Part shown: positions 1,570 through 34,192 of the stretch, one piece after another
Layout: every line of letters starts with the position of its first letter
How positions within the stretch are numbered: the stretch's first letter is position 1
NCBI GenBank assembly: GCA_007376445.1
Contig: VMGF01000003.1
Location: forward strand, 97,024-141,528
Source: Parcubacteria group bacterium Gr01-1014_3
GTDB taxonomy: Bacteria > Patescibacteriota > Minisyncoccia > UBA6257 > WO2-44-18
DNA: 44,505 nt
Direction of reading: 5' to 3'
Notes under the pieces: generated by a model
The model's input: only the letters and a program-made list of their open reading frames with translations
Databases searched by the model: none
What the model was told of the DNA's origin: nothing
Translations under genes and position numbers: made by a program

Positions 1570-1676
1570 AATTTTAAATGCTAAATTTTTAATTTTAATT
1601 TAATTACCAAATGTTAAATTTCAAAAATTAAATCATTGAAAATTAATTTAAAATTTATAATTCAAAATTTAAAATT
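1570..1676. repeat. AT-rich palindromic intergenic repeat, full-length copy A (107 bp)
   Basis: Starts AATTTTAAATGCTAAATTTTTAATTTTAATTTAAT and ends ATTAATTTAAAATTTATAATTCAAAATTTAAAATT. The two arms are imperfect reverse complements. Near-identical by eye to copy D (13894..14000). Confidence 0.85.
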
Positions 1677-1703
1677 AAAAAACCACCAAAATACTGGTGG
1701 TTT
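1675..1703 (-). terminator. rho-independent terminator of the 1712..2107 gene
   Basis: CCACCA (1683-1688) / TGGTGG (1695-1700), extended by A/T pairs. On the minus strand the hairpin is followed by a T-run. Confidence 0.6.
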
Positions 1704-1711
1704 GTGTAGCG

Positions 1712-2107
1712 CTATCCGTCATACTCACCGAGTTTTCGCCAGCCGCGGCGGCCAAGCACCATATCGCAACTACCATGCTTACTGCCATCAGTTGCCTGGT
1801 GGCAGTCCGGACATCTGTATTTAAACCGCCTGTCTTTCTTCTTTTTCTCTAACTTCTCTACTTGCAGATGGCTCTTGGCGGCGTAGAAAGTGTCCAAACG
1901 CTTTTTGATCAGTTTTTCCAGCGCTTCAATCGTCTTCAGTGGAAGGTAGCTGATCAACGCCCGCCAAATATCCACGGCTTCGCTTTCCGGAGTAGCGTTT
2001 TTTAGTTTTCGCGCCTTAATCACGACAACCTTAACAATCAGTAGATGTCCTTTGGCGACAGAATGCAGATTCAAAAAATAAGTCGGCGCTTCGCTTTTCT
2101 TGGCCAT
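1712..2107 (-). CDS. hypothetical protein with C-terminal Cys/His cluster (YRCPDCH...HGSC)
   Basis: 131-aa ORF. GAGGTG (2113-2118) lies 5 nt upstream of the ATG and is preceded by a small hairpin (2123..2141). It has its own terminator. No family recognised. Confidence 0.55.
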   Translation of the reverse strand: MAKKSEAPTYFLNLHSVAKGHLLIVKVVVIKARKLKNATPESEAVDIWRALISYLPLKTIEALEKLIKKRLDTFYAAKSHLQVEKLEKKKKDRRFKYRCPDCHQATDGSKHGSCDMVLGRRGWRKLGEYDG

Positions 2108-2162
2108 TGCAACACCTCAAATAGCTATGGAAAGTATAGCTGATAACTATTAAAAATCTATA

Positions 2163-2293
2163 GCGGGAATACGGATTGCTTTTTGGAACGTCTCGCAGGC
2201 GGTTTTGCTTGGTTTAAAAACCGCCGAGAGAGAAGAAAACCGGCCCGCTGGAGGCCGGTTATTCTGGTTCTAAAAAGCAATCCGTATTTTCGC
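2163..2293 (+). ncRNA. conserved structured element, copy c1 (27-bp closing helix plus 87-nt two-hairpin core); family unknown
   Basis: Core 2185..2271 is near-identical to 16606..16692. The outer arms GCGGGAATACGGATTGCTTTTTGGAAC and GTTCTAAAAAGCAATCCGTATTTTCGC pair fully if three G-T pairs are allowed on the plus strand. The element ends 2 nt from the pheT stop codon. Strand call is tentative. Confidence 0.5.
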
Positions 2294-2295
2294 TG

Positions 2296-4275: not shown

Positions 4276-4283
4276 GTTGTTAT

Positions 4284-4347
4284 AATTTTAAAGTTTAAAT
4301 TTAAAATTTTAATTTAATTTATAATTTATAATTCAAAATTTAAAATT
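4284..4347. repeat. AT-rich palindromic repeat, short 64-bp form (copy B)
   Basis: Both arms are present without the central segment. The right arm overlaps the last codons and stop of pheS. The left arm ends 9 nt before the pheT ATG. Confidence 0.75.
4285..4290 (-). promoter_or_regulatory. candidate -10 box TAAAAT, 9 nt upstream of the pheT ATG
   Basis: Minus strand reads TTTAAAATtataacaacATG. There is no SD. The box is part of the repeat arm. Confidence 0.35.
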
Positions 4348-5326: not shown

Positions 5327-5358
5327 CTGAATATTCGTAGTTTAACACAAGGGGTCTT

Positions 5359-5422
5359 AATTTTAAATTTTTAATTATAAATTTTAATTTAATTTAAAAT
5401 TGAAAATTTAGTATTTAAAATT
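5359..5422. repeat. AT-rich palindromic repeat, short 64-bp form (copy C)
   Basis: Near-identical by eye to copy K (34129..34192). Confidence 0.75.
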
Positions 5423-5435
5423 ATTAAGAATTAGA

Positions 5436-7259: not shown

Positions 7260-7695
7260 CGGAGGAGAAGGCAAAAAACAGCAATGTACCAATAATAACG
7301 TTATAGATTATTTCCCCCAGTACCACAAGCCAGCTGCCGATAATAAATGAGGGTTTAGCCAAAATATAAGTAGCCAGAGTACCGACTACTATCAGAACCG
7401 TGTTGTTGAAGATCCAGTTCCAGGGCATCTCTCTCCCTAGCCAAAAAGCCGCGATGGCAATTAGTCCTGTGCCTAGCAATGCCCCGTCAAAGCCGGATTG
7501 AAACTTCAAAAAAAACAAGCCCAAAACTATGAACCAGAGATATTCATAAAATTTATCCGGCAGAAACGATAAAGCTATCAAAAGAACCATCACGAAATTT
7601 GCCCGAATACCATGCACGGCTAAAAGCGGCCATTGCTGGAAAAATCCCACTAGAACTACCAACAGGCTATATCCCGTTAATTGGACAAAACCCAT
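7237..7695 (-). CDS. mreD: rod shape-determining protein MreD (by position and topology)
   Basis: 152-aa polytopic membrane protein between mreC and PBP2, overlapping both neighbours. Confidence 0.6.
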   Translation of the reverse strand: MGFVQLTGYSLLVVLVGFFQQWPLLAVHGIRANFVMVLLIALSFLPDKFYEYLWFIVLGLFFLKFQSGFDGALLGTGLIAIAAFWLGREMPWNWIFNNTVLIVVGTLATYILAKPSFIIGSWLVVLGEIIYNVIIGTLLFFAFSSDERRSKF

Positions 7696-8288: not shown

Positions 8289-8290
8289 GA

Positions 8291-9340
8291 TTAGATCTTA
8301 ATATCGCGCGGGCGGAGCGGATTATCCAGAATATGCTTGTATTTCTCTAAGTTCTCGATCGCCACACCGGTACCACGGGCCACGCAAGTTAACGGATCAT
8401 CGACGACCGTAGTGTTGACTCCCAGTTCCCGGGCCAGCAAGACATCCATGCCCTTCAAAAGACTTCCGCCACCGCAAAGATAAATACCACGGCGCAAAAT
8501 ATCACCCGCCAGCTCCGGAGGCGACAGCTCTACGACTTCTTTGATAGTTTCTACTATGGATTTCAAAGATTTAACGATCGCGGCGCGGACATGGGTGTCT
8601 TTAACCACCGCTTCTTTCGGCAATCCGGTAGCAAGATCGCGGCCGCGGATCATGAGCTCCATTTTCTGGTCCATCGGAATAGCCGAGCCGATCGAGATCT
8701 TTAATTCTTCGGCAGTCGGTTCGCCGATAGCCAGACGAAATTCATCACGAATAAACCTAATAATATCGTCATTTAATTTATCTCCGGCGATCTTCAGGCT
8801 TTTCGCGGTAACGGTGCCGCCCATGGAAATAACGGCGATCTCCGTGGTGCCGCCGCCGATATCCACGATCATGTTCGCGGTCGGCTCATCGATTGGCAGG
8901 CGCGCGCCTAAAGCGGCGGCGAGAGGCTCTTCGATCACGTAAGCCTTTGAAACTCCGGCCCCGATCACCGCGTCCTCCACGGATTTTCTTTCTACTTCGG
9001 TAAGATTGCTCGGTACGCCGATAACCGCGTGCTTGAAATTATAAAAAACTTTCGAACCGACAACTTTTTTCAAAAGATGACGCAACAACTCCTGGGTCAT
9101 ATCGAAATCCGAAATGACGCCACCAACCAACGGACGCACTACGTTGATATGAGCCGGTGTCCGGCCGATCATTTTCTTGGCCTCTTCTCCGATCGCCAGC
9201 ACATGGCCGGTCTTATTATTCACCGCCGCCACCGAAGGCTCATTGGCGATGATGCCGCGACCGGCAAGGTAAATCAGCGTGTTCGCGGTGCCGAGGTCAA
9301 TTCCGATATTTTTAGAAAAAAATGCGATTGGTGACTTCAT
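8291..9340 (-). CDS. mreB: rod shape-determining protein MreB (copy 1, in the mreBCD-PBP2 operon)
   Basis: IGIDLGTANT and DIGGGTTEIAV actin-fold phosphate motifs. The ORF-track start at 9466 adds 42 residues that run through a repeat; ATG 9340 (MKSPIAFFSKNIGIDLG) fits MreB. Confidence 0.9.
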   Translation of the reverse strand: MKSPIAFFSKNIGIDLGTANTLIYLAGRGIIANEPSVAAVNNKTGHVLAIGEEAKKMIGRTPAHINVVRPLVGGVISDFDMTQELLRHLLKKVVGSKVFYNFKHAVIGVPSNLTEVERKSVEDAVIGAGVSKAYVIEEPLAAALGARLPIDEPTANMIVDIGGGTTEIAVISMGGTVTAKSLKIAGDKLNDDIIRFIRDEFRLAIGEPTAEELKISIGSAIPMDQKMELMIRGRDLATGLPKEAVVKDTHVRAAIVKSLKSIVETIKEVVELSPPELAGDILRRGIYLCGGGSLLKGMDVLLARELGVNTTVVDDPLTCVARGTGVAIENLEKYKHILDNPLRPRDIKI

Positions 9341-9440
9341 TGCGTAAAAGACTTTAGCTATATTGTTAGCTATATTGTATACGAATAAAAAACCGCTTGC
9401 AAATCTAAATCTACGAATATCGAATTTATGCGAATAAACT

Positions 9441-9500
9441 AATAAACGAATCGCGAATTGATTCATTCGCTTATTCGTATATTCGTTCAGATTAGTTATT
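9441..9500. repeat. CGAATA-rich intergenic repeat (family 2), copy 1; contains the proS terminator-like hairpin
   Basis: About 60 bp, near-identical by eye to 14618..14680. Minus strand reads ACGAATAAGCGAAT-loop-ATTCGCGATTCGT followed by a T-rich tract. It overlaps the proS stop codon. Confidence 0.7.
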
Positions 9501-10730
9501 AGTTAATTTTTGAAGTTCTTGCAAACCTACCAACTTTGCCTCTTTAGAATCCCGTTTTTTAAGTTCGATCTTCGCTCCAGATTTTTCACTGATCACGGCG
9601 CGCCACGGAATGCCAAGCAAGTCGGCATCCGCGAACTTTTCTCCAGCGGAAACGTCCCGATCATCAAACAATACTTCGATTCCGGAATCTTTTAAGTCTT
9701 TGTAGATCTTTTTGGCGTTCAACTTCAGCGCGCCATTTTTACTTTTCAATTCCAGCAGATGGATCTGATATGGGGCAACTGACTCCGGCCAAATAATTCC
9801 TTTTTCATCATTATGCACTTCCACCAGCGTGGCCATAATGCGGGTTGGACCGATACCATAGGAGCCCATGATCACCGGCTGACGATTGCCGTCTTTGTCG
9901 GTGTAGGTCAGGTTGAAAGCTTCGGAATAACGCGTGCCAAGCTTGAAAACATTCGCCACCTCGATCGCCGGAGAAGATCCGATCTCACCGCCACACAGAG
10001 GGCAGATATTCCCCTTCTGAACGTGCGCGATCTCTTTATTTTGGGCGAAATCACACTGCTTGCAATAAAAAACCACGTCTTCACCCGCTGGGGCGAGCAC
10101 CTGGAATTCATGCGTGTACTCTTTGGTGAAAGCTCCGCCACTCGCTTCCGTCACCAGCGCCTTTAAACCAACTCGTTTTAAAATTTTCTGATACGCCTTA
10201 ATAACCTGCTGATAAAAATCATCCAGGCTTTCTTTTGAAGAGTGGAAACTATACAGATCCTTCATCATAAACTCCCGGCCACGGAGCAGGCCGTTTTTGG
10301 CGCGGGGTTCGGCCCGATACTTGGTCTGGATCTGATAAACCGAAAGCGGCAGGTCTTTGTAAGAATTTATAAAATGCGTGGCGATAGCCGTCACGACTTC
10401 TTCGTGGGTCCAGCCCAAGGCGAACTCTTCGCCAAATGGCGATTTGAATTCGTAAGCGACATCAGTATGCCAACGCTTGGATTTCTCCCAGTATTCTTTA
10501 GCGACGAGGGCCTGCATGAGCATTTCCTGCCCGCCGATCGCGTTCATCTCTTCCCGGATGATCCGGTTAATCTTGTCTAAGACCCGCAAACCCAACGGAA
10601 GCTGAGCGTAAACACCGGCGGACATCTTACGGATAAAACCGCCACGAATGAGCATTTTCGCGTTTATCGCCTCTTCATCCTTCGGAAAGGACTTAAGAGT
10701 TTTAGTAAATAATCTAGATTGCAACATCAT
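9492..10730 (-). CDS. proS: proline--tRNA ligase, bacterial type lacking the INS editing domain
   Basis: N-terminus MMLQSRLFTKTLK...AINAKMLIRGGFIRK, motif 2 RGREFMMKDLYSFH, C-terminal SYGIGPTRIM. Only 412 aa. CKQC...CPLC sits where INS normally lies. Confidence 0.88.
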   Translation of the reverse strand: MMLQSRLFTKTLKSFPKDEEAINAKMLIRGGFIRKMSAGVYAQLPLGLRVLDKINRIIREEMNAIGGQEMLMQALVAKEYWEKSKRWHTDVAYEFKSPFGEEFALGWTHEEVVTAIATHFINSYKDLPLSVYQIQTKYRAEPRAKNGLLRGREFMMKDLYSFHSSKESLDDFYQQVIKAYQKILKRVGLKALVTEASGGAFTKEYTHEFQVLAPAGEDVVFYCKQCDFAQNKEIAHVQKGNICPLCGGEIGSSPAIEVANVFKLGTRYSEAFNLTYTDKDGNRQPVIMGSYGIGPTRIMATLVEVHNDEKGIIWPESVAPYQIHLLELKSKNGALKLNAKKIYKDLKDSGIEVLFDDRDVSAGEKFADADLLGIPWRAVISEKSGAKIELKKRDSKEAKLVGLQELQKLTNN

Positions 10731-13893: not shown

Positions 13894-14000
13894 AATTTTA
13901 AATGCTAAATTTTTAATTTTAATTTAATGACCAAATGTTAAATTTCAAAAATTAAATCATTGAAAATTAATTTAAAATTTATAATTAAAAATTTAAAATT
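13894..14000. repeat. AT-rich palindromic intergenic repeat, full-length copy D (107 bp)
   Basis: Same length and nearly the same sequence as copy A. The left arm ends 8 nt from the rseP ATG. Confidence 0.85.
13895..13900 (-). promoter_or_regulatory. candidate -10 box TAAAAT, 8 nt upstream of the rseP ATG
   Basis: Minus strand reads gcattTAAAATttaagtcaATG. No SD. Confidence 0.35.
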
Positions 14001-14024
14001 ATTAGGATTTGGGTTATTTAGCGA

Positions 14025-14576
14025 TTACTCCGCTATTTCCTTTATTTTAGCATTCAAAAGCGATTCCATCTCCTCGTTGGTTTTATCCACGGCGTTTTGA
14101 ATTTTTTTGCGGCCGTTGAACTTTTGGTCCTCCGTAATCAACTTGGTTTTAAAAGACACTTCAATCTTTTTATTAGCGTCATCGCGCGAATTACGGACGC
14201 GGATCTTGACCTGCTCGGTCAGGGATTTAACCAATTTCTCCAGATCCCGTCGCCGGTCATCGGTCAATTGCGGCAAAGTAATGCGGACTAAGCTGCCGTC
14301 CGCGGAAGCGCTCACGCCCAATCCGGAAGTCTCAATAGCTTTCGCGATCGGACCGGCGGCGTCTTTATCCCAACAACTCACATTGATCTCACGCGGCGGA
14401 AGTATGCTAATCGAGCCCAATTGTTTAATGGTGAATTGCTGCTCCATATAATCCACCTTAACGTTCTCGATCAGCTTGGCGCTCGGGCGGTTAGTGCGGA
14501 TATTGGAAAGTTCTTGTTTTAATCCATCCGATAAAGCGCGGAGAGATGTTTCTAGGTCTTTTATGATTTGATCCAT
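14025..14576 (-). CDS. frr: ribosome recycling factor
   Basis: MDQIIKDLETSL...RTNRPSAKLIENVKVDYMEQ...LTDDRRRDLEKLVK is typical RRF. The ORF-track start at 14618 runs into the family-2 repeat; ATG 14576 gives a normal-length protein of 183 aa. Confidence 0.9.
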   Translation of the reverse strand: MDQIIKDLETSLRALSDGLKQELSNIRTNRPSAKLIENVKVDYMEQQFTIKQLGSISILPPREINVSCWDKDAAGPIAKAIETSGLGVSASADGSLVRITLPQLTDDRRRDLEKLVKSLTEQVKIRVRNSRDDANKKIEVSFKTKLITEDQKFNGRKKIQNAVDKTNEEMESLLNAKIKEIAE

Positions 14577-14617
14577 GAATATAAATCTACAAATAACGAA
14601 TTCATACGAATATACCA

Positions 14618-14680
14618 ATAAACGAATTACGAATTAATTCATTCGCTTATTCGTATATTCGTTCAGATTAGTTATTCGTT
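14618..14680. repeat. CGAATA-rich intergenic repeat (family 2), copy 2
   Basis: Shares AATAAC-TAA-TCTGAACGAATATACGAATAAGCGAATGAAT... (minus strand) with copy 1, including what looks like the last codons and stop of proS. Confidence 0.7.
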
Positions 14681-14682
14681 AA

Positions 14683-14766
14683 TTACGGCTTACAAACTAT
14701 CGGAAGGAAGTATAATAAAACCCCCGCGAAAATCAAGAATAAAATTATTGTGTACGCTTTGTCCAT
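14683..14766 (-). CDS. candidate 27-aa hydrophobic micropeptide (MDKAYTIILFLIFAGVLLYFLPIVCKP)
   Basis: Read by hand; it is below the ORF-track length cutoff. Single TM-like stretch. TATAGA (14775-14780) lies 8 nt upstream of the ATG. The family-2 terminator module follows the stop. Confidence 0.3.
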   Translation of the reverse strand: MDKAYTIILFLIFAGVLLYFLPIVCKP

Positions 14767-14856
14767 ATCATTAGTCTATAAAGTCAAAAGTTAAAAGTCC
14801 ATAAAGCATTTTTCATTTTTTGACTTTACGAACTTTCAGACTTTACAGACTTTCGA

Positions 14857-15582
14857 CTAGAGAAGAGCCGCTTCGAGTTGCAAGCGCTTATTCACATTAA
14901 ACTGATTAATCAGCGCCCAGCGATAGGTCAGCCTCCGTAAAACCTCAAAATTTTTCACCGGGTCTTTAGCGAGATCGCGCATCACGGCAAACACAAAATC
15001 GTCTATCAGCGCCTCGCCTTCTTTCTCCCGATCCGCTAGGTCCCTCAAAAAATCTTTTTTACCCTTTAGATCGGACATTAAAAAATCATCGGCGCTTACT
15101 TGCCCGCCTTTGGCGTTGGCTTTCGCTTCTGGAATCTCGCCAGAAATAAAAATCCTCTGAAATCGTGAAACTACGGCCGGTAAAATGGCGTCGGGAGATT
15201 TAAGCAGTAAGAAGATCAGTGCGTGCGCTGGAGGCTCTTCGCCTATCTTCAAAATCGCGCCTTGGGCTTGCGGGGTCAATTGATCGGCGTTATCGATGAT
15301 CAAAGTCCGACGAACCGACTTTATCGGCTTCTGCCATAAAAACTGAGTGGATTCACGCACCAGATCAATACCGCCGGCGATGTTGGCGTCTATGAATTTA
15401 TAATCAAATAATATCTGCTCCGCTTTTTCCCATTTATCATTCTCTAAAAAATTCGCTAAATAATTCACCGCGTTGACCCGTTCGCCTATTCCCGTGTGGC
15501 CATACAAAAGATACCCATGGGATAACTTTTCACTTTTAATTAAACGTTTAAAATATTTTTCTAACTCCGCAACTTTGGCCAT
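14857..15582 (-). CDS. holB: DNA polymerase III subunit delta prime
   Basis: SHGYLLYGHTGIGER (degenerate P-loop), RTLIIDNADQLTPQAQGAILKIGEEPP, LPAVVSRFQ. I prefer ATG 15582 over the ORF-track GTG 15597. Confidence 0.8.
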   Translation of the reverse strand: MAKVAELEKYFKRLIKSEKLSHGYLLYGHTGIGERVNAVNYLANFLENDKWEKAEQILFDYKFIDANIAGGIDLVRESTQFLWQKPIKSVRRTLIIDNADQLTPQAQGAILKIGEEPPAHALIFLLLKSPDAILPAVVSRFQRIFISGEIPEAKANAKGGQVSADDFLMSDLKGKKDFLRDLADREKEGEALIDDFVFAVMRDLAKDPVKNFEVLRRLTYRWALINQFNVNKRLQLEAALL

Positions 15583-15588: not shown

Positions 15589-15594
15589 ATTATA
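15589..15594 (-). promoter_or_regulatory. consensus -10 box TATAAT, 6 nt upstream of the holB ATG (leaderless configuration)
   Basis: Minus strand reads gtgTATAATtgtgatATGgcc. Confidence 0.45.
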
Positions 15595-15601
15595 CACGAA
15601 A

Positions 15602-15635
15602 CCCCTCCCTTATCGCTTCGCGCAAAAGGGAGGGG
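15602..15635. terminator. 10-bp GC-rich hairpin (CCCCTCCCTT / AAGGGAGGGG) between element c3 and holB
   Basis: Perfect 10-bp stem with T-rich sequence on either side. On the minus strand it would insulate holB from the upstream island. Confidence 0.5.
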
Positions 15636-15641
15636 TTATTG

Positions 15642-15809
15642 TTTTCTCGCAAAAATTTCGGTCGAGAGCAACTCCTTCTTCGGAACGTCTCGGAGGCGGT
15701 TTGGCTTGGTTCAGCAAACCGCCGAGAGAGAAGAAAATCCGGCCGCTGGAGCCGGATTATTCTGGTTCCGAAAAGGAGTTGGTGGAGGGTACCGAAATTT
15801 TTGAGAAAG
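15642..15809 (+). ncRNA. conserved structured element, copy c3 (core 15682..15769 plus two nested closing helices)
   Basis: The core aligns with c1/c2. Both internal hairpins carry paired substitutions (GGCGGTTT/AAACCGCC; ATCCGGC/GCCGGAT). Outer helix TTTCTCGCAAAAATTTCGGT pairs with ACCGAAATTTTTGAGAAAG. Confidence 0.5.
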
Positions 15810-16034
15810 CCAATAAAAAAGGCCCCGCTCAGAGGGGAGGTATCGTTCTGGAAACTCCAGACGACCCTCTTTCCCTCCAAGCGGGGCACCGTAGACCCAG
15901 CTGTCATCCAATCTAGCCATGCCGCCAGGCACGCTTCGCCAGCTAGACCGCTGTCGCCTTCGGCCGCGCAGGCTCTTACCGCAACCGGATGGGCGGCAGA
16001 ATCGAACGGACATCATCTTCGGACCGGGCGTTTT

Positions 16035-16187
16035 CTACTGCTCGCCGTGGTCTTCGGACTTGGCCGTCAGCTCCGGCGGCACATCCACCGGCTTCGGATC
16101 CTTGCACCGATCCTGCCGACGGACCGCATCTTCGTTGTCGTTGTCCTCGGACGTACGCTCGTTTGCGAACATCTCGTATTCCTCCAT
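16035..16187 (-). CDS. candidate 50-aa acidic small protein (MEEYEMFANERTSEDNDNEDAVRRQDRCKDPKPVDVPPELTAKSEDHGEQ)
   Basis: Hand-translated. AAGGTGA lies about 12 nt upstream, which is distant. It sits in the GC-rich island downstream of the first small ORF. Confidence 0.3.
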   Translation of the reverse strand: MEEYEMFANERTSEDNDNEDAVRRQDRCKDPKPVDVPPELTAKSEDHGEQ

Positions 16188-16270
16188 TTTCAAAAGAACT
16201 CACCTTGCACTCAGGCCACTACCACCCTTCGACAAGCTCAGGGTAAACAAGTAATGGGCTGAGAAAAGGT

Positions 16271-16293
16271 GGGGATGGCGACAGGCCATCCCC
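16271..16293 (-). terminator. 9-bp GC hairpin (GGGGATGGC / GCCATCCCC) after small ORF 1
   Basis: Perfect stem with a 5-nt loop. On the minus strand it is followed by ACCTTTTCTC. Confidence 0.45.
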
Positions 16294-16347
16294 GACTCCC
16301 ATGGTATGTCCAACTCTCTCGCAAGAGTGAGGCCATGGAAGAACTAG

Positions 16348-16482
16348 CTACAGCCGGATCTCGGCTTCGATGCGGCCGTTGCGCCGCTTGACCGTCTCCT
16401 TGACGACGGCCACCTTGAGCCGGCGAGCCAGATTGATCAGCGCCAGCGTCGACACCCTGAAAGCCTGCTTTCTGTCCTTCAT
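16348..16482 (-). CDS. candidate 44-aa basic small protein (MKDRKQAFRVSTLALINLARRLKVAVVKETVKRRNGRIEAEIRL)
   Basis: Hand-translated. AAGGAGGG lies 4 nt upstream of the ATG, a near-consensus promoter is just upstream, and a hairpin terminator is downstream. Confidence 0.55.
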   Translation of the reverse strand: MKDRKQAFRVSTLALINLARRLKVAVVKETVKRRNGRIEAEIRL

Positions 16483-16508
16483 TTGTCCCTCCTTAAGGAT
16501 CTGTCGGT

Positions 16509-16536
16509 ATTATAGCATACCCACAGAATCTGTCAA
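16509..16536 (-). promoter_or_regulatory. near-consensus sigma70 promoter (TTGACA - 16 nt - TGcTATAAT)
   Basis: Minus strand reads cTTGACAgattctgtgggtaTGcTATAATaccgacagatccttAAGGAGGGacaaATG. Confidence 0.65.
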
Positions 16537-16582
16537 GCCCTCCTTCCCTTCCAGCCACCCCCCCTCAAATAAGCCTATTTAT

Positions 16583-16715
16583 GGGGGTTTCGGGAATCAC
16601 TTTTCGGAACGTCTCGGAGGCAGTTTTGCTTGGTTTAAAAACTGCCGAGAGAGAAGAAAACCGGCCCGCTGGAGGCCGGTTATTCTGGTTCTGAAAAGTG
16701 ATTCCCGAAACCCCC
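16583..16715 (+). ncRNA. conserved structured element, copy c2 (28-bp closing helix, core 16606..16692)
   Basis: GGGGGTTTCGGGAATCACTTTTCGGAAC pairs with GTTCTGAAAAGTGATTCCCGAAACCCCC, with one G-T pair on the plus strand. It ends 7 nt from the stop codon of the second mreB. Confidence 0.5.
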
Positions 16716-16722
16716 AACCAGC

Positions 16723-17730
16723 CTAGCGCTTATTCAGCAAAGTCCTCTTATAGACCTCTAAATGGTTCAAAATAAGCCCAGTTCCCTTTGCCACGCAGAA
16801 CAACGGCTCATCGGCAATATAGGCCTGCACGCCCGTCATCCGCTTGAAGAACTCATCGATATTGCGAAGCTGAGCGCCACCGCCGGAAAGGATCAGGCCT
16901 TTTTCCATAATGTCCGCCACCAGCTCCGGCGGGGTTCTGCTGAAGACATCTTGCACGGAAGCCGCTATGTCCAAAAGATATGGATTCAGAGCCTCGGCAA
17001 TCTCATTGGAGTTGATCACAATATCCCTCGGCAAGCCAGAAACCATATCCCTTCCGCGGGTTTTAAATTCCAGACGCTCCTTGGTCGGCAAGGCGGAACC
17101 GGCTTCGATCTTGGCCGCTTCAGCGGTCTGCTCACCGATGTGCAGGCCGTACTTCTTTTTAATATAATCCATGATCGCGTGATCAAATTTATTACCGGCC
17201 ACCCGCAAACTAGACTGGGCCACGATACCACCCAGAGCTACTACAGCCACCTCGGAAGTACCGCCGCCGATATTGATTATCAGGTTTCCGGAATGATTGT
17301 TGATTGGAACACCGGCGCCCAGCGCGGCCAGAATCGGCTCCTTGACGATATAGGCGTCTTTAGCGCCCGCTTCCCTCGCGGCATTAACTACCGCGCGCCG
17401 CTCAGTCGGCGAAATACCGGCCGGCACAGAAATAACAACTTCCGGACGGAAGAGGTTGAAGGAGCCAGTAGCTTTGGTAATAAAATACCTCAGCATCGCT
17501 TTAGTGATGTAGTAATCGGCGATTACGCCATCTTTCATTGGGCGGTACGCGATGATATCGTCCGGTGTGCGACCGATCATGTCTTTTGCTTCTTTACCGA
17601 CGGCCAAAACACCATTATCCGGACTACTCAAAGCCACGATGGTCGGCTCGTTAACAATAAAACCGCGTCCCGGCACGAAGACGATCGTATTCGCGGTACC
17701 AAGATCTATGCCAATTTTTCGAGTGAACAT
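16723..17730 (-). CDS. mreB: MreB paralogue (copy 2)
   Basis: 335 aa with IGIDLGTANT, NIGGGTSEVAV and a full-length actin fold. Confidence 0.88.
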   Translation of the reverse strand: MFTRKIGIDLGTANTIVFVPGRGFIVNEPTIVALSSPDNGVLAVGKEAKDMIGRTPDDIIAYRPMKDGVIADYYITKAMLRYFITKATGSFNLFRPEVVISVPAGISPTERRAVVNAAREAGAKDAYIVKEPILAALGAGVPINNHSGNLIINIGGGTSEVAVVALGGIVAQSSLRVAGNKFDHAIMDYIKKKYGLHIGEQTAEAAKIEAGSALPTKERLEFKTRGRDMVSGLPRDIVINSNEIAEALNPYLLDIAASVQDVFSRTPPELVADIMEKGLILSGGGAQLRNIDEFFKRMTGVQAYIADEPLFCVAKGTGLILNHLEVYKRTLLNKR

Positions 17731-17737: not shown

Positions 17738-17830
17738 AAATTTTTAATTTTAAGTTTTAAGTTTTAAATTAATTTTAGAATTTATAAATTTGATCATTTG
17801 TTTAAAATTGAAAATTTATAATTTAAAATT
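17738..17830. repeat. AT-rich palindromic repeat, degenerate copy E
   Basis: Recognisable left and right arm motifs. The right arm overlaps the murA stop codon. Confidence 0.55.
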
Positions 17831-19145
17831 ATTCTTTTCTAATAATGCTAGCTCCCAATTTTCTCAATCTCTCATCTATCCGCTCATATCCCCTATCAAT
17901 TTCCTCGGCGCCGGTGATCACCGATTCTCCATCAGCGATCAGGGCGGCGATGATATGAGCGATCCCAGAACGCAGATCTCTTACTTCTAAATTCGCGGCT
18001 TTCAATTTGCTCGGTCCATGTATCGCCGCGCTATGGTTATGATCGCGTCCGGCAAAGCGGCAGGAACCTCCTCCTAGACACTGTGAGAATACTTTAATCT
18101 CCGCGCCCATTAAATTCAAGTCTTTCACATAACTGAAGCGATCTTCATAAACTGTTTCGTGAATGGTCGAATCGCCATCGGCTTGCGTCAGAAGCACCGC
18201 CACTGGCTGCTGCCAATCGGTCATGAAGCCCGGATACGGATCTGTTTCTATATTTGCCGGTTTTAAAATTTTATTTTCCGGAGGCCGATAAAATACTATG
18301 CCTCCACTTTGAATTTCATACTCGCCGCCGATTTTCCTCAAAACATTTAAAAAAGTGATCAGGTCGTCATGCCTGGCTTCTTTGACTAAAATGCGCCCAC
18401 CGGTGGCGACCGCCAGAGACGCGAAAGAAACCGCTTCGTTGCGATCCGGCATAATCCGATAAGTCACTCCGCGCAGCTCTTTTACGCCATCGATATAAAT
18501 ATTTCGGTTAGCGCCCACTTCAATGATCGCCCCCATCTGCTGAAGCATTTTTATTAGATCCAATACTTCCGGTTCGACGGCGGCATTATGAATCTCCGTT
18601 AGTCCAACGGCCAAAACGGCGGCCAAAATCGTGTTCTCGGTCGCGCCAACGCTTGGATAACGAAAAGTAATATTCGCGCCATGCAATCCATTCTTCGCCG
18701 AAGCGACATAGCGATCTTCAAGGATTTCGATCTCGGCGCCCATCGCCGTCAAAGCGTTAATATGAATATCCACTGGACGTGGACCGATTTTATCACCACC
18801 CAAGATCGGTACTTCCGCCTCCCCCACCCTGGCAAGGAGCGGACCGAGCGCCAGAATCGGAATGCGGTTACGGCGGCTTAAGGAAATTACTTTGGAATTT
18901 TTAATCTCCGGCGTGTGAATTTTCAGAACCGAACCATCCGGCCGATTTTCGACTTCGATATTAGACCCGATAGACCGGCAAAGTTCAGCCGTGATCTCAG
19001 TGTCTCCAATCTCCGGAAAATTCTCCAGAACGCACGGCTCGGAAGTCAGAATAGAAGCCACCATCATTTTGGTCGCCGCGTTCTTCGCTCCCGCAAGACG
19101 AATCTCGCCTTCCAGCTTTTTTCCTCCTCGGATAATAAACTTCAT
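17829..19145 (-). CDS. murA: UDP-N-acetylglucosamine 1-carboxyvinyltransferase
   Basis: MKFIIRGGKKLEGEIRLAGAKNAATK..., GGDKIGPRPVDIH. 438 aa. Confidence 0.92.
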   Translation of the reverse strand: MKFIIRGGKKLEGEIRLAGAKNAATKMMVASILTSEPCVLENFPEIGDTEITAELCRSIGSNIEVENRPDGSVLKIHTPEIKNSKVISLSRRNRIPILALGPLLARVGEAEVPILGGDKIGPRPVDIHINALTAMGAEIEILEDRYVASAKNGLHGANITFRYPSVGATENTILAAVLAVGLTEIHNAAVEPEVLDLIKMLQQMGAIIEVGANRNIYIDGVKELRGVTYRIMPDRNEAVSFASLAVATGGRILVKEARHDDLITFLNVLRKIGGEYEIQSGGIVFYRPPENKILKPANIETDPYPGFMTDWQQPVAVLLTQADGDSTIHETVYEDRFSYVKDLNLMGAEIKVFSQCLGGGSCRFAGRDHNHSAAIHGPSKLKAANLEVRDLRSGIAHIIAALIADGESVITGAEEIDRGYERIDERLRKLGASIIRKE

Positions 19146-19259
19146 TGTGGCTTAATTTTACACCAAATTTAAAACTCCACCAATATGGCTAATCTAGCGC
19201 GAATATACTAATTCAAAAATTGGTATATTGGTGCTCTATTCGTATATTAGTGAAGTTTT

Positions 19260-25143: not shown

Positions 25144-25151
25144 GCTTTTGA

Positions 25152-25257
25152 AATTTTAAATTCCCAATTTTTAATTTTAATTTAATGACCAAATATCAAA
25201 TTTAAAAATTAAATCATTTAAAATTAACTTAAAATTTATAATTAAAAATTTAAAATT
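25152..25257. repeat. AT-rich palindromic intergenic repeat, full-length copy F
   Basis: 106 bp with the same arms and centre as copies A and D. The left arm ends 9 nt from ATG 25143. Confidence 0.85.
25153..25158 (-). promoter_or_regulatory. candidate -10 box TAAAAT, 9 nt upstream of ATG 25143
   Basis: Minus strand reads gggaattTAAAATttcaaaagcATG. Confidence 0.35.
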
Positions 25258-25334
25258 CGATGTCTTCAAGGTGCTAATTTTCAAAATTTTGGATTTTAGT
25301 CATTAGAATTTGTTTCAAGCTTCGTGTTTAGAAT

Positions 25335-26544: not shown

Positions 26545-26650
26545 AATTTTAAATTCTAAATTTTTAATTTTAATTGAATGATTAAATGCTAAATTTAAAA
26601 TTAAATCATTGAAAAATTCATTTAAAATTTAAAATTAAAAACTTAAAATT
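26545..26650. repeat. AT-rich palindromic intergenic repeat, full-length copy G
   Basis: 106 bp, more diverged in the centre than the other full-length copies. Confidence 0.8.
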
Positions 26651-26676
26651 AAAAGCTGCGCTATAGCGCAGCTTTT
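26651..26676 (-). terminator. rho-independent terminator overlapping the stop codon of the 26661..27632 gene
   Basis: AAAAGCTGCGC-TATA-GCGCAGCTTTT is a perfect palindrome with the TAG stop lying in the loop. On the minus strand it is followed by TTTTAATTTT. Confidence 0.7.
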
Positions 26677-27708: not shown

Positions 27709-27817
27709 AATTTTAAATTCTAAATTTTTAATTTTAATTTAATGACTAAATTAACAAATTTTTAAACATTTTATCATTTTGATTTAATTTAAAATTTATA
27801 ATTGAAAATTTAAAATT
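27709..27817. repeat. AT-rich palindromic intergenic repeat, full-length copy H
   Basis: 109 bp with both arms conserved and a diverged centre. Confidence 0.8.
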
Positions 27818-27821
27818 CTTA

Positions 27822-29576: not shown

Positions 29577-29583
29577 TGTTATA

Positions 29584-29620
29584 AATTTTAAATTCTAAAT
29601 TTTTAATTTTAAATGAATGT
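29584..29620. repeat. AT-rich palindromic repeat, left arm only (copy I)
   Basis: AATTTTAAATTCTAAATTTTTAATTTTAAATGAATG. The arm ends 8 nt from the alaS ATG (TAAAAT at 29585-29590). The matching right arm lies on the far side of the next gene. Confidence 0.7.
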
Positions 29621-29634
29621 TAAAATGAGTAATT

Positions 29635-29997
29635 TCAAATTTTTCTTTCGAGTGTTTGGGTTATTTTTGAAAATATCAGAGTAAGCTCCTGTACCTCTTT
29701 CCATAATTTACGAGCAACATCTTCTATCTCTGGGTTGGCCTTTGCGATCCGCTCCAGCCAATACTTGGTTTCTCGAGCTTCTTTTTTACAAATGTATATC
29801 TTGTTCTTAAAATCTTTTTGAGAACTGGCTCCATTGGCTTCCATATAGTTCGCGCCTATAGATGTCGCTGACCGTACTAATTGACTGACTAGTGGCGTAT
29901 TTATAAGGTCTTTCTTTATGCTGCGCGCAAATGGAAGCACTTCATCGCTAAATTTAGCGGTTCTATCCTCTAGGTCGTATTTTTTATCATTTGGCAT
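29635..29997 (-). CDS. four-helix-bundle protein (23S rRNA intervening-sequence protein family)
   Basis: LVSQLVRSATSIGANYMEANGASSQKDF...ICKKEARETKYWLERI matches the family signature from memory. Confidence 0.8.
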   Translation of the reverse strand: MPNDKKYDLEDRTAKFSDEVLPFARSIKKDLINTPLVSQLVRSATSIGANYMEANGASSQKDFKNKIYICKKEARETKYWLERIAKANPEIEDVARKLWKEVQELTLIFSKITQTLERKI

Positions 29998-30003
29998 TGT
30001 GTC

Positions 30004-30038
30004 ATTAACTTAAAATTTAAAATTGAAAATTTCAAATT
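30004..30038. repeat. AT-rich palindromic repeat, right arm only (copy J)
   Basis: ATTAACTTAAAATTTAAAATTGAAAATTTCAAATT aligns with the right arm of copy H. Confidence 0.6.
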
Positions 30039-30065
30039 ATAAGATTCCGAATAAGCTTATAGTCC

Positions 30066-31427: not shown

Positions 31428-31514
31428 AAAAAATAGCCCTTTACAGGCTATGATCAAACAATCTTTGCGACTTAACCAATATAGCACAAAGCCCGGTTTT
31501 TGGGAATACCCAGA

Positions 31515-31730
31515 TTAAGCTGGGATTAATATCTTTTTCTGCCCAGCCGAAACCTGAAAACGCTCCCTACCCGGATTAGTTTTCGTATAGTTCAAAACTT
31601 CTATGCCAACAATCTCTCCCTTTCTGTCTATATCCATCAAAAAGTGGCCTTTTTCTAAGGTTTTGGAAATTTTGTTGCGATTAAGTTCTATATAAAGCGC
31701 GTCCGCTTCTTTGTCGTATTTTATTTTCAT
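31515..31730 (-). CDS. DUF2283-family protein (putative antitoxin partner)
   Basis: MKIKYDKEADALYIELN...GEIVGIEVLN is the characteristic DUF2283 pattern. It overlaps the upstream gene by 4 nt (ATGA). Confidence 0.75.
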   Translation of the reverse strand: MKIKYDKEADALYIELNRNKISKTLEKGHFLMDIDRKGEIVGIEVLNYTKTNPGRERFQVSAGQKKILIPA

Positions 31731-31942
31731 AAGTAGTAGGTTGTTATAATCGTGAATCTTTCTTTGTATTGATGATAGATAACGACTAATTTTTTACCAT
31801 TTTTTACATAAATGCATTTAATTGTTCCGTGTTCCTGGATTCGCCGCTCTTGTCCTTTCAGTAAAGCTTCTTTAACCGCTATTTTGGAGATGCTCCTTTT
31901 CTTTAATCGGTGTAACGCATGCTTACTATACCTTATCTTCAT
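31727..31942 (-). CDS. DUF4258-family protein (putative toxin partner)
   Basis: MKIRYSKHALHRLKKRSISK... is a typical DUF4258 N-terminus. 71 aa. Confidence 0.7.
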   Translation of the reverse strand: MKIRYSKHALHRLKKRSISKIAVKEALLKGQERRIQEHGTIKCIYVKNGKKLVVIYHQYKERFTIITTYYL

Positions 31943-31950
31943 TATACCCC

Positions 31951-31979
31951 ACTATAAATTTAGGGTGTTGATAAGTCAA
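31951..31979 (-). promoter_or_regulatory. sigma70-like promoter (TTGACT - 17 nt - TATAGT), 8 nt upstream of the DUF4258 ATG
   Basis: Minus strand reads caTTGACTtatcaacaccctaaattTATAGTggggtataATG. Confidence 0.55.
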
Positions 31980-31989
31980 TGTTTACTGA

Positions 31990-34116
31990 TTATTCCCGCT
32001 TTCCGGCTCGGTAGATTTCGGCGACTTCGGTGGCGGAAAGGGCGCGGTTGTAGGCGCGGACTTCGTCGAGGAGGCCGTCAAAATAAGCCGCGACCTGGGC
32101 TGTCCTGCCGATCCATAAAATGGACTTAGCGGTTTGCGCTCCGGTTGAAACAGTCGCGTTGGTGGATTGTAAAACGCCATCAACATAAATGGCGGAAGTG
32201 GTTATGTCCGCGTCAGCGGTGCCGGGAATTGTAAAAACCACATGATGCCAATTATTATCAGCGAGGTTTGTATCGGCATTGAAATAACGATAATTAGAAC
32301 CGCCCATATAAATAATATGCCTTGTAGTATCCCAATAAAGAGAAACTAGGGGTACGCCGCCGGCCGCTCCAAAATTTACGACAGGGTGTACGCCGGTTCC
32401 GGAAATCCTAACCCAGCCGCTGATAGAAAAGGCTGTTAGTGTTGGAGGAGTCACGACGTCAACATAATCATTTATCCCGTCAAATTTTAACGCCTGGCCA
32501 ACCACACCCGACGCGACAGTTGGGCCGCCGGTTAAAGTTCCATTATTCCCCCCGCTCCCTCGGTCGGTTGCTACCGTCCCACTCACATCCGGGCCATTGA
32601 ATGGCCAAAAACCGACTAAGCCGCCGTCGAAGCGATTGTTTTGAGAAATATTTTGCTTGCTTCTTTGTTCCGGAGCGCCGGCGCGGTAGATTTCGGCTAC
32701 TTCTGTGGCGGAAAGGACGCGATTGTATAAACGAATTTCGTCTAGTGGGCCGTTCCAAAAACCGCCCGGCGATTGATAAGCGGCTATTTGAATAGTGTTA
32801 GCGCTCGTAATATCCCAGGCACTGACACCAGTCGTTGGCGTTCCGTCTTGCGCGCCATCAGTATATAGGGTGATGGTATCACCGTCTCTTACTCCCACTG
32901 AGTGATGCCATTGATTATCATTTATTGCTTTTGTTCCAACGGTTTCGGCTTGCGCTGCACCGTTTGCAATTCTAAACCTCATTGTGTTGGTGTTTGTATT
33001 TACATACAAATTAAACCCGGCCAGGTTTGTTCCGGCCTGTTTGTTGTCGATTGGGGTCATATAACCTAGGCTACCAGTTTTATACCAAGCTGAAACCGAC
33101 ATTGGACCAGTGCCGAAGTCATCTGCTCCAGGATTAGCTATAGTAATATAATCATTCACGCCATCAAATTTAAGGGCTTGACCAACAACGCCGGTAGCGG
33201 TTGTGGGGCCGCTAGTTAAAGTCCCGTTATTCCCCTGCCCGCTTCGGTCAGATGCCGTTACACCGCTAATATCTGCTCCATTGAATGGCCAAAAACCGAC
33301 GAGACCGCCGTCGTAACGATTATTTTGAGAAATGCTCTGTTTATCCCCTTCCGTCCTCGCGGTAGTTTTATAATGTTCCGCGACTTCGGTGGCGCTCATG
33401 GCCCGATTATAAACACGAACTTCGTCGATGGCTCCGTCCCAATAAGATCCGCTCGGCGGTAAACCGATGGAAAGAGTCGAATCAACATATGTAATACCGG
33501 TGGCGTAAGAAAACGGCGTACCAGAAACCGCGCCATCAATATAAAGAGTCACGGTCGCGCCATCATAAGTACCTACGACATGGTGCCACTGACCAAGTGA
33601 TGGCATATCAATAGTCACATAGCCACCAGGAGAAGCGCTGGCGTCATAGTCATCCACCCACCAAGTAAATTTACTGTTGGTGGAGCGATTATAAAAACCA
33701 TAGCCATCATTCCACGTACCGCTGGAGGTTTTCATGACCGGTCCTTGGAAATTTACCTCCCGGTTGGCTAGCATCCAGAACTCAACGCTAACTGAAGCAG
33801 GACTAAGCAACGCGTTATGTGCCACCGAAACAGTATTGTCGGCGCCATCAAAATCCAATGCTTGGCCGACTACGCCACCGCGCCTTTTCGGAGCGCCAGC
33901 GATAGTGCCGTTCAATCCGCCACCGCTCCGATCGGTCGCCGTGGTTCCGCTCACATCCGATCCATTAAATGACCAGTAGCCGACTAAGCCACCATCAAAC
34001 CGATTGGTGGGATAAACTATCTGCCTCAAAGCGGCGACGGTTGGCTGCCAACCGAGGGTTATGATAAGTAAGCCGCCGATGACTAGCAAGGTTATGATGA
34101 TTACTTTGGGTTTCAT
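31990..34116 (-). CDS. secreted or anchored protein with four LamG (concanavalin A-like lectin) domains
   Basis: N-terminal TM/signal. Four repeats of GGLVG(Y/F)W(S/P)FNG.D.SG......DRSG.G.NGT...G.....G.VGQAL.FDG ... DEVR.YNRA(L/M)SATEVAE.Y. Confidence 0.85.
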   Translation of the reverse strand: MKPKVIIITLLVIGGLLIITLGWQPTVAALRQIVYPTNRFDGGLVGYWSFNGSDVSGTTATDRSGGGLNGTIAGAPKRRGGVVGQALDFDGADNTVSVAHNALLSPASVSVEFWMLANREVNFQGPVMKTSSGTWNDGYGFYNRSTNSKFTWWVDDYDASASPGGYVTIDMPSLGQWHHVVGTYDGATVTLYIDGAVSGTPFSYATGITYVDSTLSIGLPPSGSYWDGAIDEVRVYNRAMSATEVAEHYKTTARTEGDKQSISQNNRYDGGLVGFWPFNGADISGVTASDRSGQGNNGTLTSGPTTATGVVGQALKFDGVNDYITIANPGADDFGTGPMSVSAWYKTGSLGYMTPIDNKQAGTNLAGFNLYVNTNTNTMRFRIANGAAQAETVGTKAINDNQWHHSVGVRDGDTITLYTDGAQDGTPTTGVSAWDITSANTIQIAAYQSPGGFWNGPLDEIRLYNRVLSATEVAEIYRAGAPEQRSKQNISQNNRFDGGLVGFWPFNGPDVSGTVATDRGSGGNNGTLTGGPTVASGVVGQALKFDGINDYVDVVTPPTLTAFSISGWVRISGTGVHPVVNFGAAGGVPLVSLYWDTTRHIIYMGGSNYRYFNADTNLADNNWHHVVFTIPGTADADITTSAIYVDGVLQSTNATVSTGAQTAKSILWIGRTAQVAAYFDGLLDEVRAYNRALSATEVAEIYRAGKRE

Positions 34117-34128
34117 GTACTTATACTG

Positions 34129-34192
34129 AATTTTAAATTTTTAATTATAAATTTTAATTTAATTTAAAATTGGAAATTTAAAATTTAAAATT
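34129..34192. repeat. AT-rich palindromic repeat, short 64-bp form (copy K)
   Basis: Near-identical to copy C. It lies between the stop of the 34194 gene and the LamG start. Confidence 0.75.

Follow-up and report, generated by a model that had tools for sequence, protein, structure and literature searches.

The window analysed here, 44,505 nucleotides of the Parcubacteria group bacterium Gr01-1014_3 (contig VMGF01000003.1, positions 97,024 to 141,528 of the forward strand), comes from an uncultured bacterium whose DNA originates from a groundwater metagenome. Its GC content is 47.4% and nearly all of its genes lie on the minus strand; the closest PheS relatives, with ~70% identity, are found in Paceibacteria-type members of the candidate phyla radiation (CPR; Harrison-, Jorgensen-, Wolfe- and Colwellbacteria), on which ground an origin from Doudnabacteria was rejected. 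An AT-rich palindromic repeat recurs between these genes, at junctions whose Pfam assignments are PBP2/PheS, PheS/PheT, RRF/RseP and MurA/MreB, and beside AlaS and several unknown genes. We found that one occurrence of the repeat encloses a gene of the family PF05635 (TIGR02436) between two arms, and that the 64- and 108-nt copies are miniatures from which this open reading frame (ORF) has been deleted. A tRNA scan of the window found none, Rfam at gathering thresholds gave no match in it, hence no rRNA match, and Pfam detected no gene for a transposase, an integrase, a reverse transcriptase or RNase III among its proteins. To the left of the window, an extension contig of ~3 kb (Logan contig L222) carries gyrB, secE and nusG and terminates inside the first copy of the repeat, c1, indicating that assemblies break at these repeats.

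Eleven copies had been reported in a sequence-only reading of this DNA, and all of them were recovered at the positions given there. They are the only islands of the window with GC ≤15% and a length of ≥59 nt, and a repeat finder sorted them into families of direct repeats. The 27-mer consensus of the R arm (≤3 mismatches) gave 9 matches and the 34-mer consensus of the L arm 10, against 0.00 expected for either from dinucleotide-preserving shuffles, so that the frequency of the repeat is above what base composition alone would give. Nine copies in the 44.5 kb lack an ORF; these are 64–108 nt long, non-coding and bounded by terminal inverted repeats (AATTTTAAA...TTTAAAATT), as is usual for transposable elements of the miniature inverted-repeat kind (MITEs). 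The palindromes described earlier are real: in an alignment of 16 ORF-less copies from ≥12 genomes, the arms of the projected hairpin pair in 86% of cells, compared with 24–63% when the partner is slid. The copies also have a 7-nt period, with autocorrelations at lag 7 and lag 14 of 0.63 and 0.58 (0.44 and 0.42 after shuffling).

Each copy lies in a gap between two minus-strand genes, as had been claimed. The full-length copy c1 (1570–1677, minus strand, 108 nt) runs from the L to the R arm in the gene sense and is placed between a GC-rich terminator (1678–1705) on one side and the native promoter and Shine-Dalgarno (SD) sequence of the 1506 gene on the other. It is 98% identical across 108 nt to c4 (13894–14001, minus strand, 108 nt), which occupies the frr/rseP junction, and the flanks of the two copies are unrelated. 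Further full copies on the minus strand are c6 (25152–25258, 107 nt), in front of the 536-aa gene at 25143, c7 (26545–26652, 108 nt), directly downstream of a GC-rich terminator (26651–26676) and followed by a gene with its own AAGG SD, and c8 (27709–27817, ~108 nt), which lies downstream of alaS, the next gene being 73 nt on with a GAGG SD. Short copies of 64 nt are c2 (4284–4347, minus strand) at the pheS/pheT junction, c3 (5359–5422, plus strand) between PBP2 and pheS, and c11 (34129–34192, plus strand), which is 93% identical to c3 and starts 1 nt past the upstream stop. A degenerate copy of 98 nt, c5 (17738–17835), is found at the murA/mreB junction. The overlap of the distal arm with the upstream stop codon was confirmed both for pheS (8 nt, L arm of c2) and for murA (7 nt, c5).

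The copies do not all point the same way. Relative to the others, c3 and c11 are both inverted; this assignment is robust, because the canonical L-arm pattern lies on the plus strand with 1 mismatch and so does the R-type arm, which contains TAG (in c3, at 5359–5392 and 5396–5422, respectively); c5 also appears to be inverted, but this is a weak call. At the gene-proximal ends, a TAAAAT box precedes the ATG by 8–9 nt, as reported before, in front of pheT (9 nt), rseP (8 nt), the 25143 gene (9 nt) and alaS (8 nt), and at these 4 of the 11 junctions only. The spacing at the remaining junctions is 13 nt (c11), 16, 19, 33 (c3) or >45 nt.

The arms at 30004 and 29584 had been taken for split arms of the repeat. 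They are indeed present, but as the left and right ends of a single cassette (29584–30043) around a PF05635 gene. The L arm (30004–30043, minus strand) stops 6 nt short of the ATG of a gene for a 120-aa four-helix-bundle protein (29635–29997, minus strand), which fills the loop, and the R arm (29584–29617, minus strand), an exact match to the 27-mer, carries the TAAAAT box 8 nt from the alaS ATG. The protein matches Pfam PF05635 with E 6.8e-17 and NCBIfam TIGR02436 with E 6.1e-23, its nearest solved structure is PDB 2rld (E 2.1e-12), and the PADLOC library gave no match for it. It is the sole PF05635 gene in the window. In the sense orientation the two arms form a duplex of −14.4 kcal/mol. A PF05635 ORF between arms (in one full cassette), complementary terminal arms and tandem heptamers beside the ORF are the features of cassettes of the type known from rRNA intervening sequences (IVSs); a location in an rRNA helix is not found among the copies of the window, all of which lie between protein-coding genes.

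The same architecture surrounds the relatives of this gene. The 80 closest genomic relatives of the window protein (47–72% identity) are from metagenome-assembled genomes (MAGs) of CPR, Gammaproteobacteria, Bdellovibrionales, Dehalococcoidia, Nitrospirae, Planctomycetes, Verrucomicrobia and Omnitrophota, and nearly all of them are flanked by arrays of ~7-nt units, the downstream array being the reverse complement of the upstream one. The unit is uniform within a locus and different between loci (e.g., AATTTTA; AATTTTC/AATTTAC; CAAATGN; TCTAATTA; GACGAAT; CTAATGT), with the complementarity kept. For the 75 relatives with intact flanks, the median score for complementarity between a gene's own arms was 18.5 (≥15 at 49/75 loci), compared with 9 for the arm of another locus, 9 for direct comparison and 8.5 for shuffled arms. 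The lag-7 autocorrelation was 0.44–0.49 in the cassette flanks and 0.27 in control sequence 630–700 nt upstream, and peaks were seen at lags 7 and 14. Protein identity tracks arm similarity (Spearman rho 0.47, a value reached by 0/500 label permutations), so that the PF05635 gene and its arms travel together. The cassettes are co-oriented with the upstream neighbour in 62/69 cases and with the downstream neighbour in 65/68, at median gaps of 53 and 70 nt. Viral contigs contain the architecture as well: about 12 of 17 PF05635 homologues there have heptad arms (units ATTCGTA, GTAATGA and GACAATG; lag-7 autocorrelation 0.42–0.45). The viral homologues without such arms have strong SDs and, judged from their sequences, may be of the type of Avd, the homologue found in diversity-generating retroelements (DGRs).

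The ORF-less copies derive from such cassettes. The 108-nt copies of the window and the ORF-less copies of other CPR genomes align collinearly with composites of the upstream and downstream flanks of ORF-bearing cassettes, and the alignment takes in the subterminal AAATCAATTTTAAATGATT, which precedes the PF05635 start codon in two of the cassettes (L024 and L026). This collinearity identifies the 64- and 108-nt copies as ORF-deleted miniatures. The miniature form itself must have spread, because c1 and c4 share a non-repetitive centre between unrelated flanks, which independent deletions in place would not give.

That the copies arrived by insertion is clearest between pheS and pheT. PheS ends in ...QF* (CAATTTTAA) in the window and in its relatives; in the closest relatives listed, the end of pheS is followed by 0–8 nt and then by ATGAAATT... 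of pheT. The spacer is ≤37 nt in 49/78 genomes, with a median of ~5 nt among those 49, whereas in the window 64 nt of element fill the junction, which makes the copy an insertion. The comparison of orthologous junctions that had been proposed as a check thus found the site empty in most relatives and filled here, a contrast that was available only at deep phylogenetic distance (~70% PheS identity). The initial 8 nt of the terminal repeat match the native end of pheS, ...CAATTTTAA, at the empty sites. In other lineages the same junction is filled by heptad palindromes of other units and, in one genome (L151), by a TIGR02436 gene. Two MAGs labelled Wolfebacteria and Patescibacteria (L133 and L139) have pheS/pheT insertions of 330–403 nt with small candidate ORFs, GIY-YIG-like by sequence, and palindromes of their own; small selfish ORFs of several types apparently have a hotspot in the pheS/pheT spacer.

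The exact R-arm 27-mer was present at 21 loci in GTDB representative genomes and at 40 metagenome loci. Many of these are ORF-less copies at conserved housekeeping junctions of CPR genomes, such as rpsB/tsf (two genomes), groES/groEL and YqeY-like/ybeY (two genomes), and the frr/rseP junction occupied by c4 is also filled in a Microgenomates genome (L009). A PF05635 gene (E 1e-25 and 6e-23) stands immediately before the 27-nt arm in MAGs with the labels Campylobacterota and Sphingobacteriales, its stop codon adjoining the arm. With near-identical dispersed copies, occurrences in many genomes and orthologous pheS/pheT sites that are mostly empty, the repeat is portable, as had been supposed. 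In other groundwater runs, the bins covering the repeat reach a word depth of up to ~800×, compared with ~0–6 in adjoining gene bins, and the borders of the repeat show heterogeneous loose ends; in four related groundwater runs no strain-level empty site or clean excision could be read, since contigs break at the repeats. The exact AT arm had no match in viral contigs, and a phage vector for it was rejected on these 0 exact viral matches, although viral PF05635 genes have heptad arms of other units.

Several arrangements were observed around the element in these genomes. A Minisyncoccales genome (L002) has a frameshifted PF05635 pseudogene at 213–571 near an ORF-less copy, and in a Sphingobacteriales genome (L015, 2864–3217) two PF05635 genes occur within 1.6 kb, both of which are consistent with turnover and multiplicity of cassettes. 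In a Clostridia MAG of 56% GC (L007) and a Gammaproteobacteria MAG (L021), the AT arm adjoins other common repeat motifs (e.g., ...GGTTCGACAGGCTCACCATGACC..., ...GCTCCTCGCAATGACA...), which hints at a clustering of different small palindromic repeat families.

The gene starts of the window bear on how such elements could be accommodated. A recognisable SD is present at only ~6/32 window genes. The ~26/32 genes without one include the repeat-free ribosomal-protein cluster S13-S11-S4-RpoA-L17-L13-S9, and the typical start context is A-rich, e.g., ...AACAC ATG or ...ACAAC ATG. These sequences suggest that SD-independent initiation is the norm in this CPR lineage. That genes preceded by the repeat have no SD, as had been stated, is not a property specific to the repeat.

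With the identity of the element, its cassette architecture, its derivation, its insertion and its spread across genomes demonstrated, we consider it rather likely that the repeats are selfish hairpin elements of the IVS type, present as a full PF05635 cassette and as ORF-deleted miniatures that are co-transcribed with their neighbours, probably cut by RNase III and perhaps endowed with some promoter activity as a by-product. The complete form consists of a left heptad arm, a PF05635/TIGR02436 gene of ~120 aa and a reverse-complement right arm, and the ORF-deleted miniatures have dispersed by themselves through the short spacers that separate co-directional housekeeping genes. The elements are presumably transcribed within host operons, where the arms would pair as an AU-rich duplex of ~30 bp. 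By analogy with the rRNA IVSs, RNase III probably cuts this duplex and thereby parts the cistrons on either side; a cut in the full form would also free the ORF. An AU-only element 6–8 nt before an ATG would do little harm, and insertions near starts may be tolerated because most genes here start SD-less on A/U-rich leaders. The outward TAAAAT boxes may add promoter activity, as in the Correia elements of Neisseria; such activity would then follow incidentally from the symmetry of the element, whose purpose it would not be.

The canonical strand folds better in 8/9 window copies whatever the gene direction, suggesting that this asymmetry is inherited and does not reflect selection on the host transcript; the sense RNA of c6 contains three U-G wobbles. 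Several results weigh against the reading as IVS-type elements. The AU-only stems are weak at 37 °C (minimum free energy, MFE, −7 to −21 kcal/mol; z −0.2 to −3.7), and RNAalifold found no consensus structure for the 16 ORF-less copies. Covariation in the AT family was not above that of shuffles, in part because the R arm is fixed in this sample. Among the arm mismatches of 49 cassettes, G-U-compatible transitions were about equally frequent in the sense (38) and the antisense (41), and without a sense-strand bias, the sense RNA need not be where the pairing acts. Of the 13 sampled cassettes without clear protein-coding flanks, none was located in an rRNA gene (0/13), so the link to true IVSs is one of protein family and architecture, with no observed intermediate. 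A target-site duplication could be delimited neither from the flanks, which have no direct repeat in common, nor from the empty pheS/pheT sites, and Pfam found no mobilising enzyme among the window proteins. For the matches outside CPR, the taxon labels are those of the MAG records.

Three better-known types of mobile element were considered and rejected. A transposase-driven MITE does not fit, as a four-helix-bundle protein is all that the ORF-bearing form encodes and the window has no transposase, integrase or reverse transcriptase. In the pair formed by repetitive extragenic palindromic (REP) sequences and their associated tyrosine transposases (RAYTs), the arm-flanked ORF would be a Y1 transposase, not PF05635. 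For an integron attC site, the enclosed ORF is again the wrong one (PF05635), and no recombinase is found in the window.

The sequence-only reading had explained the repeat as a portable terminator-promoter cassette, in which the hairpin ends the upstream transcript and the proximal TAAAAT starts a leaderless or near-leaderless mRNA. We regard a functional module of this kind as unlikely, although parts of the argument hold: the repeat is portable, and sigma-70-like matches do lie near starts. The pair TTAAAA-N16-TAAAAT (9/12 sigma-70 matches, in AT-only DNA) is present at the gene-proximal end of c6, c7, c8 and c9R, and TAAAAT is 8–9 nt from the ATG at the four junctions given above. Native genes have -10-like boxes 6–9 nt from the ATG with no repeat, namely murA (TGTAAAAT, 9 nt), holB (TGTATAAT, 6 nt) and secE (TATAAAAT, 9 nt, on L222), which makes leaderless or very short-leader mRNAs plausible here, and element ends could be co-opted for leaderless transcription. 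Correia elements of Neisseria, moreover, are palindromic repeats whose ends can create promoters (PMC2649163). The three repeat-free examples that had been offered for this geometry (holB, a TATAGT box and a TATAGA box) all exist, but the TATAGA box, with its 8-nt spacing, lies in the R arm of another palindrome (14774–14857, described below) and so is not repeat-free.

The terminator half of this proposal finds no support in the sequence of the stems, which are AU-only, contain no GC-rich segment and are followed by no U-tract; a terminator scan called none of the AT copies but did call the GC hairpin at 26651–26676 beside c7, and separate canonical terminators of a GC-rich hairpin and a T-run lie directly upstream of c1 and c7. 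As for the promoter half, the box belongs to the terminal inverted repeat and thus faces outward on both strands, so that an identical box points away on the antisense strand at the opposite end of each copy. The spacing to the ATG carries little weight, because tandem heptads guarantee a TAnnnT box every 7 nt; it ranges from 13 to >45 nt at 7/11 window junctions and from 2 to 57 nt at 16 sense sites in other genomes (14/16 at ≤18 nt), and at spacings of 2–4 nt the transcription start site would land within the ORF. Whether the orientation of the repeat always follows that of the genes had been proposed as a check; c3 and c11 are inverted, and outside the window the TAG-type arm is in sense at 16 co-directional junctions and in antisense at 10, a census whose marker is imperfect in that in some genomes the 27-mer is on the other arm (L202). 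Furthermore, c1, c7 and c8 are followed by the promoter-like sequence and SD of the downstream gene itself, other cassette families have GC-containing units with no -10-like box, and pheS and pheT, which are tightly coupled (0–8 nt) in the closest relatives listed, need no internal promoter. A promoter role of the copies is, on sequence grounds, unproven.

Equally doubtful, in our judgement, is that the heptad arrays are binding sites, in RNA or DNA, for the PF05635 protein acting on its own cassette or in trans, with the ORF-less copies parasitising this recognition; the protein would recognise its own 7-nt unit for autoregulation, nuclease protection or mobilisation. The correlation of protein and arm similarity (rho 0.47; 0/500 permutations) would be expected if each protein read its own unit, but co-inheritance of ORF and arms alone could produce it. 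The homogeneity of the unit within a locus and its difference between loci also agree with such recognition, and Avd, the DGR homologue, works with a reverse transcriptase. Oligomeric four-helix bundles would suit repeated sites, and the Xanthomonas protein is a toroidal pentamer according to the passage that refers to it in PMC4990558. On the other hand, the window has one PF05635 gene for ≥9 ORF-less AT copies and for other heptad families without a cognate gene, nucleic-acid binding is not known for members outside DGRs, and the Coxiella protein is apparently not made (PMC4990558).

A further explanation, to which we give a low probability, is translational gating: the ribosome that ends the upstream gene would melt the stem and free the A/U-rich leader, so that coupling survives the insertion. 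The geometry is suggestive at some junctions, where the stop codon is inside the L arm (c2 and c5) or 1 nt before it (c11), and the R arm ends 6–8 nt before the ATG at 6/11 junctions. SD-less initiation is general here, and the ancestral pheS/pheT spacers of 0–8 nt in the closest relatives listed imply coupling. However, in most copies (c1, c3, c4, c6, c7 and c8) the distance to the stop is 6–76 nt, which keeps this geometry from being general; the weak AU stems may occlude nothing, and the argument is purely inferential.

Finally, that the AT heptad arrays are not mobile and arose by replication slippage in place, resembling each other by convergence, is strongly disfavoured and has hardly any probability left: heptameric simple-sequence repeats are over-represented in bacteria with strain-variable copy number (PMC4692102) and the number of Coxiella heptamers varies (PMC4990558), but the 98% identity of c1 and c4 extends across 108 nt and takes in the non-repetitive centre, between unrelated flanks, exact 27-mers are common to many genomes where 0 are expected by chance, the copies are collinear with cassette flanks, and orthologous sites are empty in relatives.

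At least two further heptad-palindrome families are present in the window and were absent from the earlier description. One has the units ACGAATA/TATTCGT, with copies at 9402–9508 (minus strand; MFE −29.3, z −4.8) and, 90% identical to it, at 14578–14684 (minus strand, just upstream of frr; MFE −34.5, z −6.9), and a further member at ~19188–19252. The other, with the units TAAAGTC/GACTTTA, occupies 14774–14857 (minus strand; MFE −29.0, z −7.0), directly after the holB stop, and holds in its R arm the TATAGA box mentioned above. Both families fold far more strongly than the AT family (MFE −29 to −34.5, z −4.8 to −7), and no cognate PF05635 gene for either was found in the window. The longest-ORF starts of the second mreB (8291–9466, start 9466) and of frr (14025–14618, start 14618) fall in these heptad hairpins. 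Since the Pfam MreB match of the former begins only at residue 52 and frr has an ATG at ~14576, past the hairpin, the true starts of both genes are probably further downstream.

We also observed a GC-rich structured repeat of ~100–130 nt at 2160–2290, 15660–15790 and 16583–16712 (minus-strand reading). A conserved core of two hairpins sits inside an outer stem whose sequence is specific to each copy yet always self-complementary. The MFE is −60 to −69 kcal/mol (z −10 to −12), and hairpin 2 contains a compensatory G>A/C>T change between copies. No Rfam match was obtained for 15590–16730 even at E ≤1, and searches with this repeat (D10) in GTDB representative genomes returned chance matches only. 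Either a novel structured RNA or an element whose insertion sites are the loops of hairpins already in place could account for it. Two of the copies lie in a gap of ~1.1 kb from mreB to holB (15598–16722) that is without a convincing gene; none of its plus-strand ORFs matches Pfam, and Rfam likewise gave nothing there.

Further features of the window were also noted. A giant ORF of ≥2993 aa (35201–44182) runs toward the window edge, with internal repeats at a period of ~1.1–1.4 kb (families D1, D3–D5, D8 and D9) and only faint Pfam matches (LVIVD/beta-propeller); from its sequence it is probably a huge surface protein. A 708-aa protein (31990–34116) has three tandem Laminin_G_3 (concanavalin-like lectin) modules, visible in the DNA as 684-nt periodic repeats (D11 and D12). 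The 502-nt gap at 31488–31989 contains a 71-aa ORF (MKIRYSKHALHRLKK...) with TATAGT, 8 nt and ATG at 31940–31956; this is the locus that had been read as a putative toxin-antitoxin operon.

Much of the background to these elements is already known, i.e., the IVSs with S23p ORFs, the heptamers of the Coxiella IVS, MITE-like repeats and bacterial heptamer repeats (PMC4692102). Our literature searches turned up no account of a general PF05635 architecture with self-complementary heptads outside rRNA, across phyla and viral contigs, none of ORF-less miniatures populating CPR operon spacers, and none linking PF05635 cassettes or miniatures to intergenic heptamer repeats. One tentative extension, which may well not hold, is that PF05635 genes with self-complementary heptad flanks make up one large, so far unrecognised class of mobile hairpin cassettes in CPR, other phyla and phages, of which the IVSs occupy just the best-known landing site. 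The intergenic heptamer repeats of cyanobacteria and Xanthomonas and the ORF-less AT hairpins in CPR operons would then be relics, the protein would read its own arms, and RNase III or promoter activity would punctuate operons. If true, this would tie together, and make testable, the origin and mobility of the rRNA IVSs, a question open since ~1990, the function of the abundant but uncharacterised S23p/four-helix-bundle family and the unexplained surplus of heptameric repeats in the intergenic DNA of bacteria. In CPR/Patescibacteria genomics, the elements matter in that they break assemblies and mislead the calling of start codons. They occupy the exact spot of ribosome-binding signals, which raises the question of translation start and operon punctuation in reduced genomes. 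Should the hairpins serve as RNase III or promoter sites, this uncultured radiation would have in them a layer of operon regulation that is portable.

Among known systems, Avd shares the PF05635 family and the four-helix-bundle fold with the protein described here, but it is found beside a reverse transcriptase and a template repeat, and no reverse transcriptase exists in this window. The short tandemly repeated repetitive (STRR) sequences of heterocystous cyanobacteria and the GGGAATC and GGGGA(C/T)T repeats of Xanthomonas and Nostoc are likewise over-represented, tandem, intergenic 7-nt units, whereas the text that describes them mentions neither inverted pairs nor S23p/PF05635 (0 occurrences of 'S23' and 0 of 'intervening'; PMC4692102). 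Bacterial MITEs and REP sequences, including bacterial interspersed mosaic elements (BIMEs), are similarly short, multi-copy, non-coding and intergenic, with terminal inverted repeats and an origin in a longer ORF-bearing form. They differ in that the parent here has no recognisable transposase or RAYT and in that the arms are heptad arrays instead of unique terminal inverted repeats.

Correia elements of Neisseria, known as Correia repeat enclosed elements (CREE) or Neisseria miniature insertion sequences (NEMIS), have 26-bp terminal inverted repeats, a TA target duplication and an integration host factor (IHF) site. Like the repeats here, they are described as intergenic palindromic miniatures of ~100–150 bp in many copies, and they are co-transcribed with their neighbours (PMC2649163). 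Promoters can arise at one end or at both, and the hairpin is bound or cut by RNase III (PMC2649163). In function they are the best analogue for both the promoter and the processing ideas, but they have no sequence relationship to the present elements, no 7-nt periodicity and no ORF-bearing four-helix-bundle parent.

PF05635 genes have been noted wedged in unrelated operons, e.g., between cmr3 and cmr2 (PMC3936711), and in rRNA insertions of CPR bacteria (PMC11270868). In the IVS of Coxiella, the S23p ORF lies in a stem-loop with tandem GACAGAT heptamers, variable in number, upstream of it, and RNase III cleavage has been mapped experimentally in the stem at the first heptamer (PMC4990558). 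The 23S rRNA IVSs with an S23p/PF05635 ORF (Leptospira, Coxiella burnetii, Brucella and Haemophilus) differ from the present elements in sitting in 23S helix 25/45 instead of between protein-coding genes; here, in addition, most copies are ORF-less, the arms are AT-only and RNase III cleavage is only inferred. They resemble them in carrying a protein of this family in the loop of long-stem inverted repeats, in the tandem heptamers beside the ORF, in the poor or missing SD of that ORF and in being regarded as selfish (PMC4990558).

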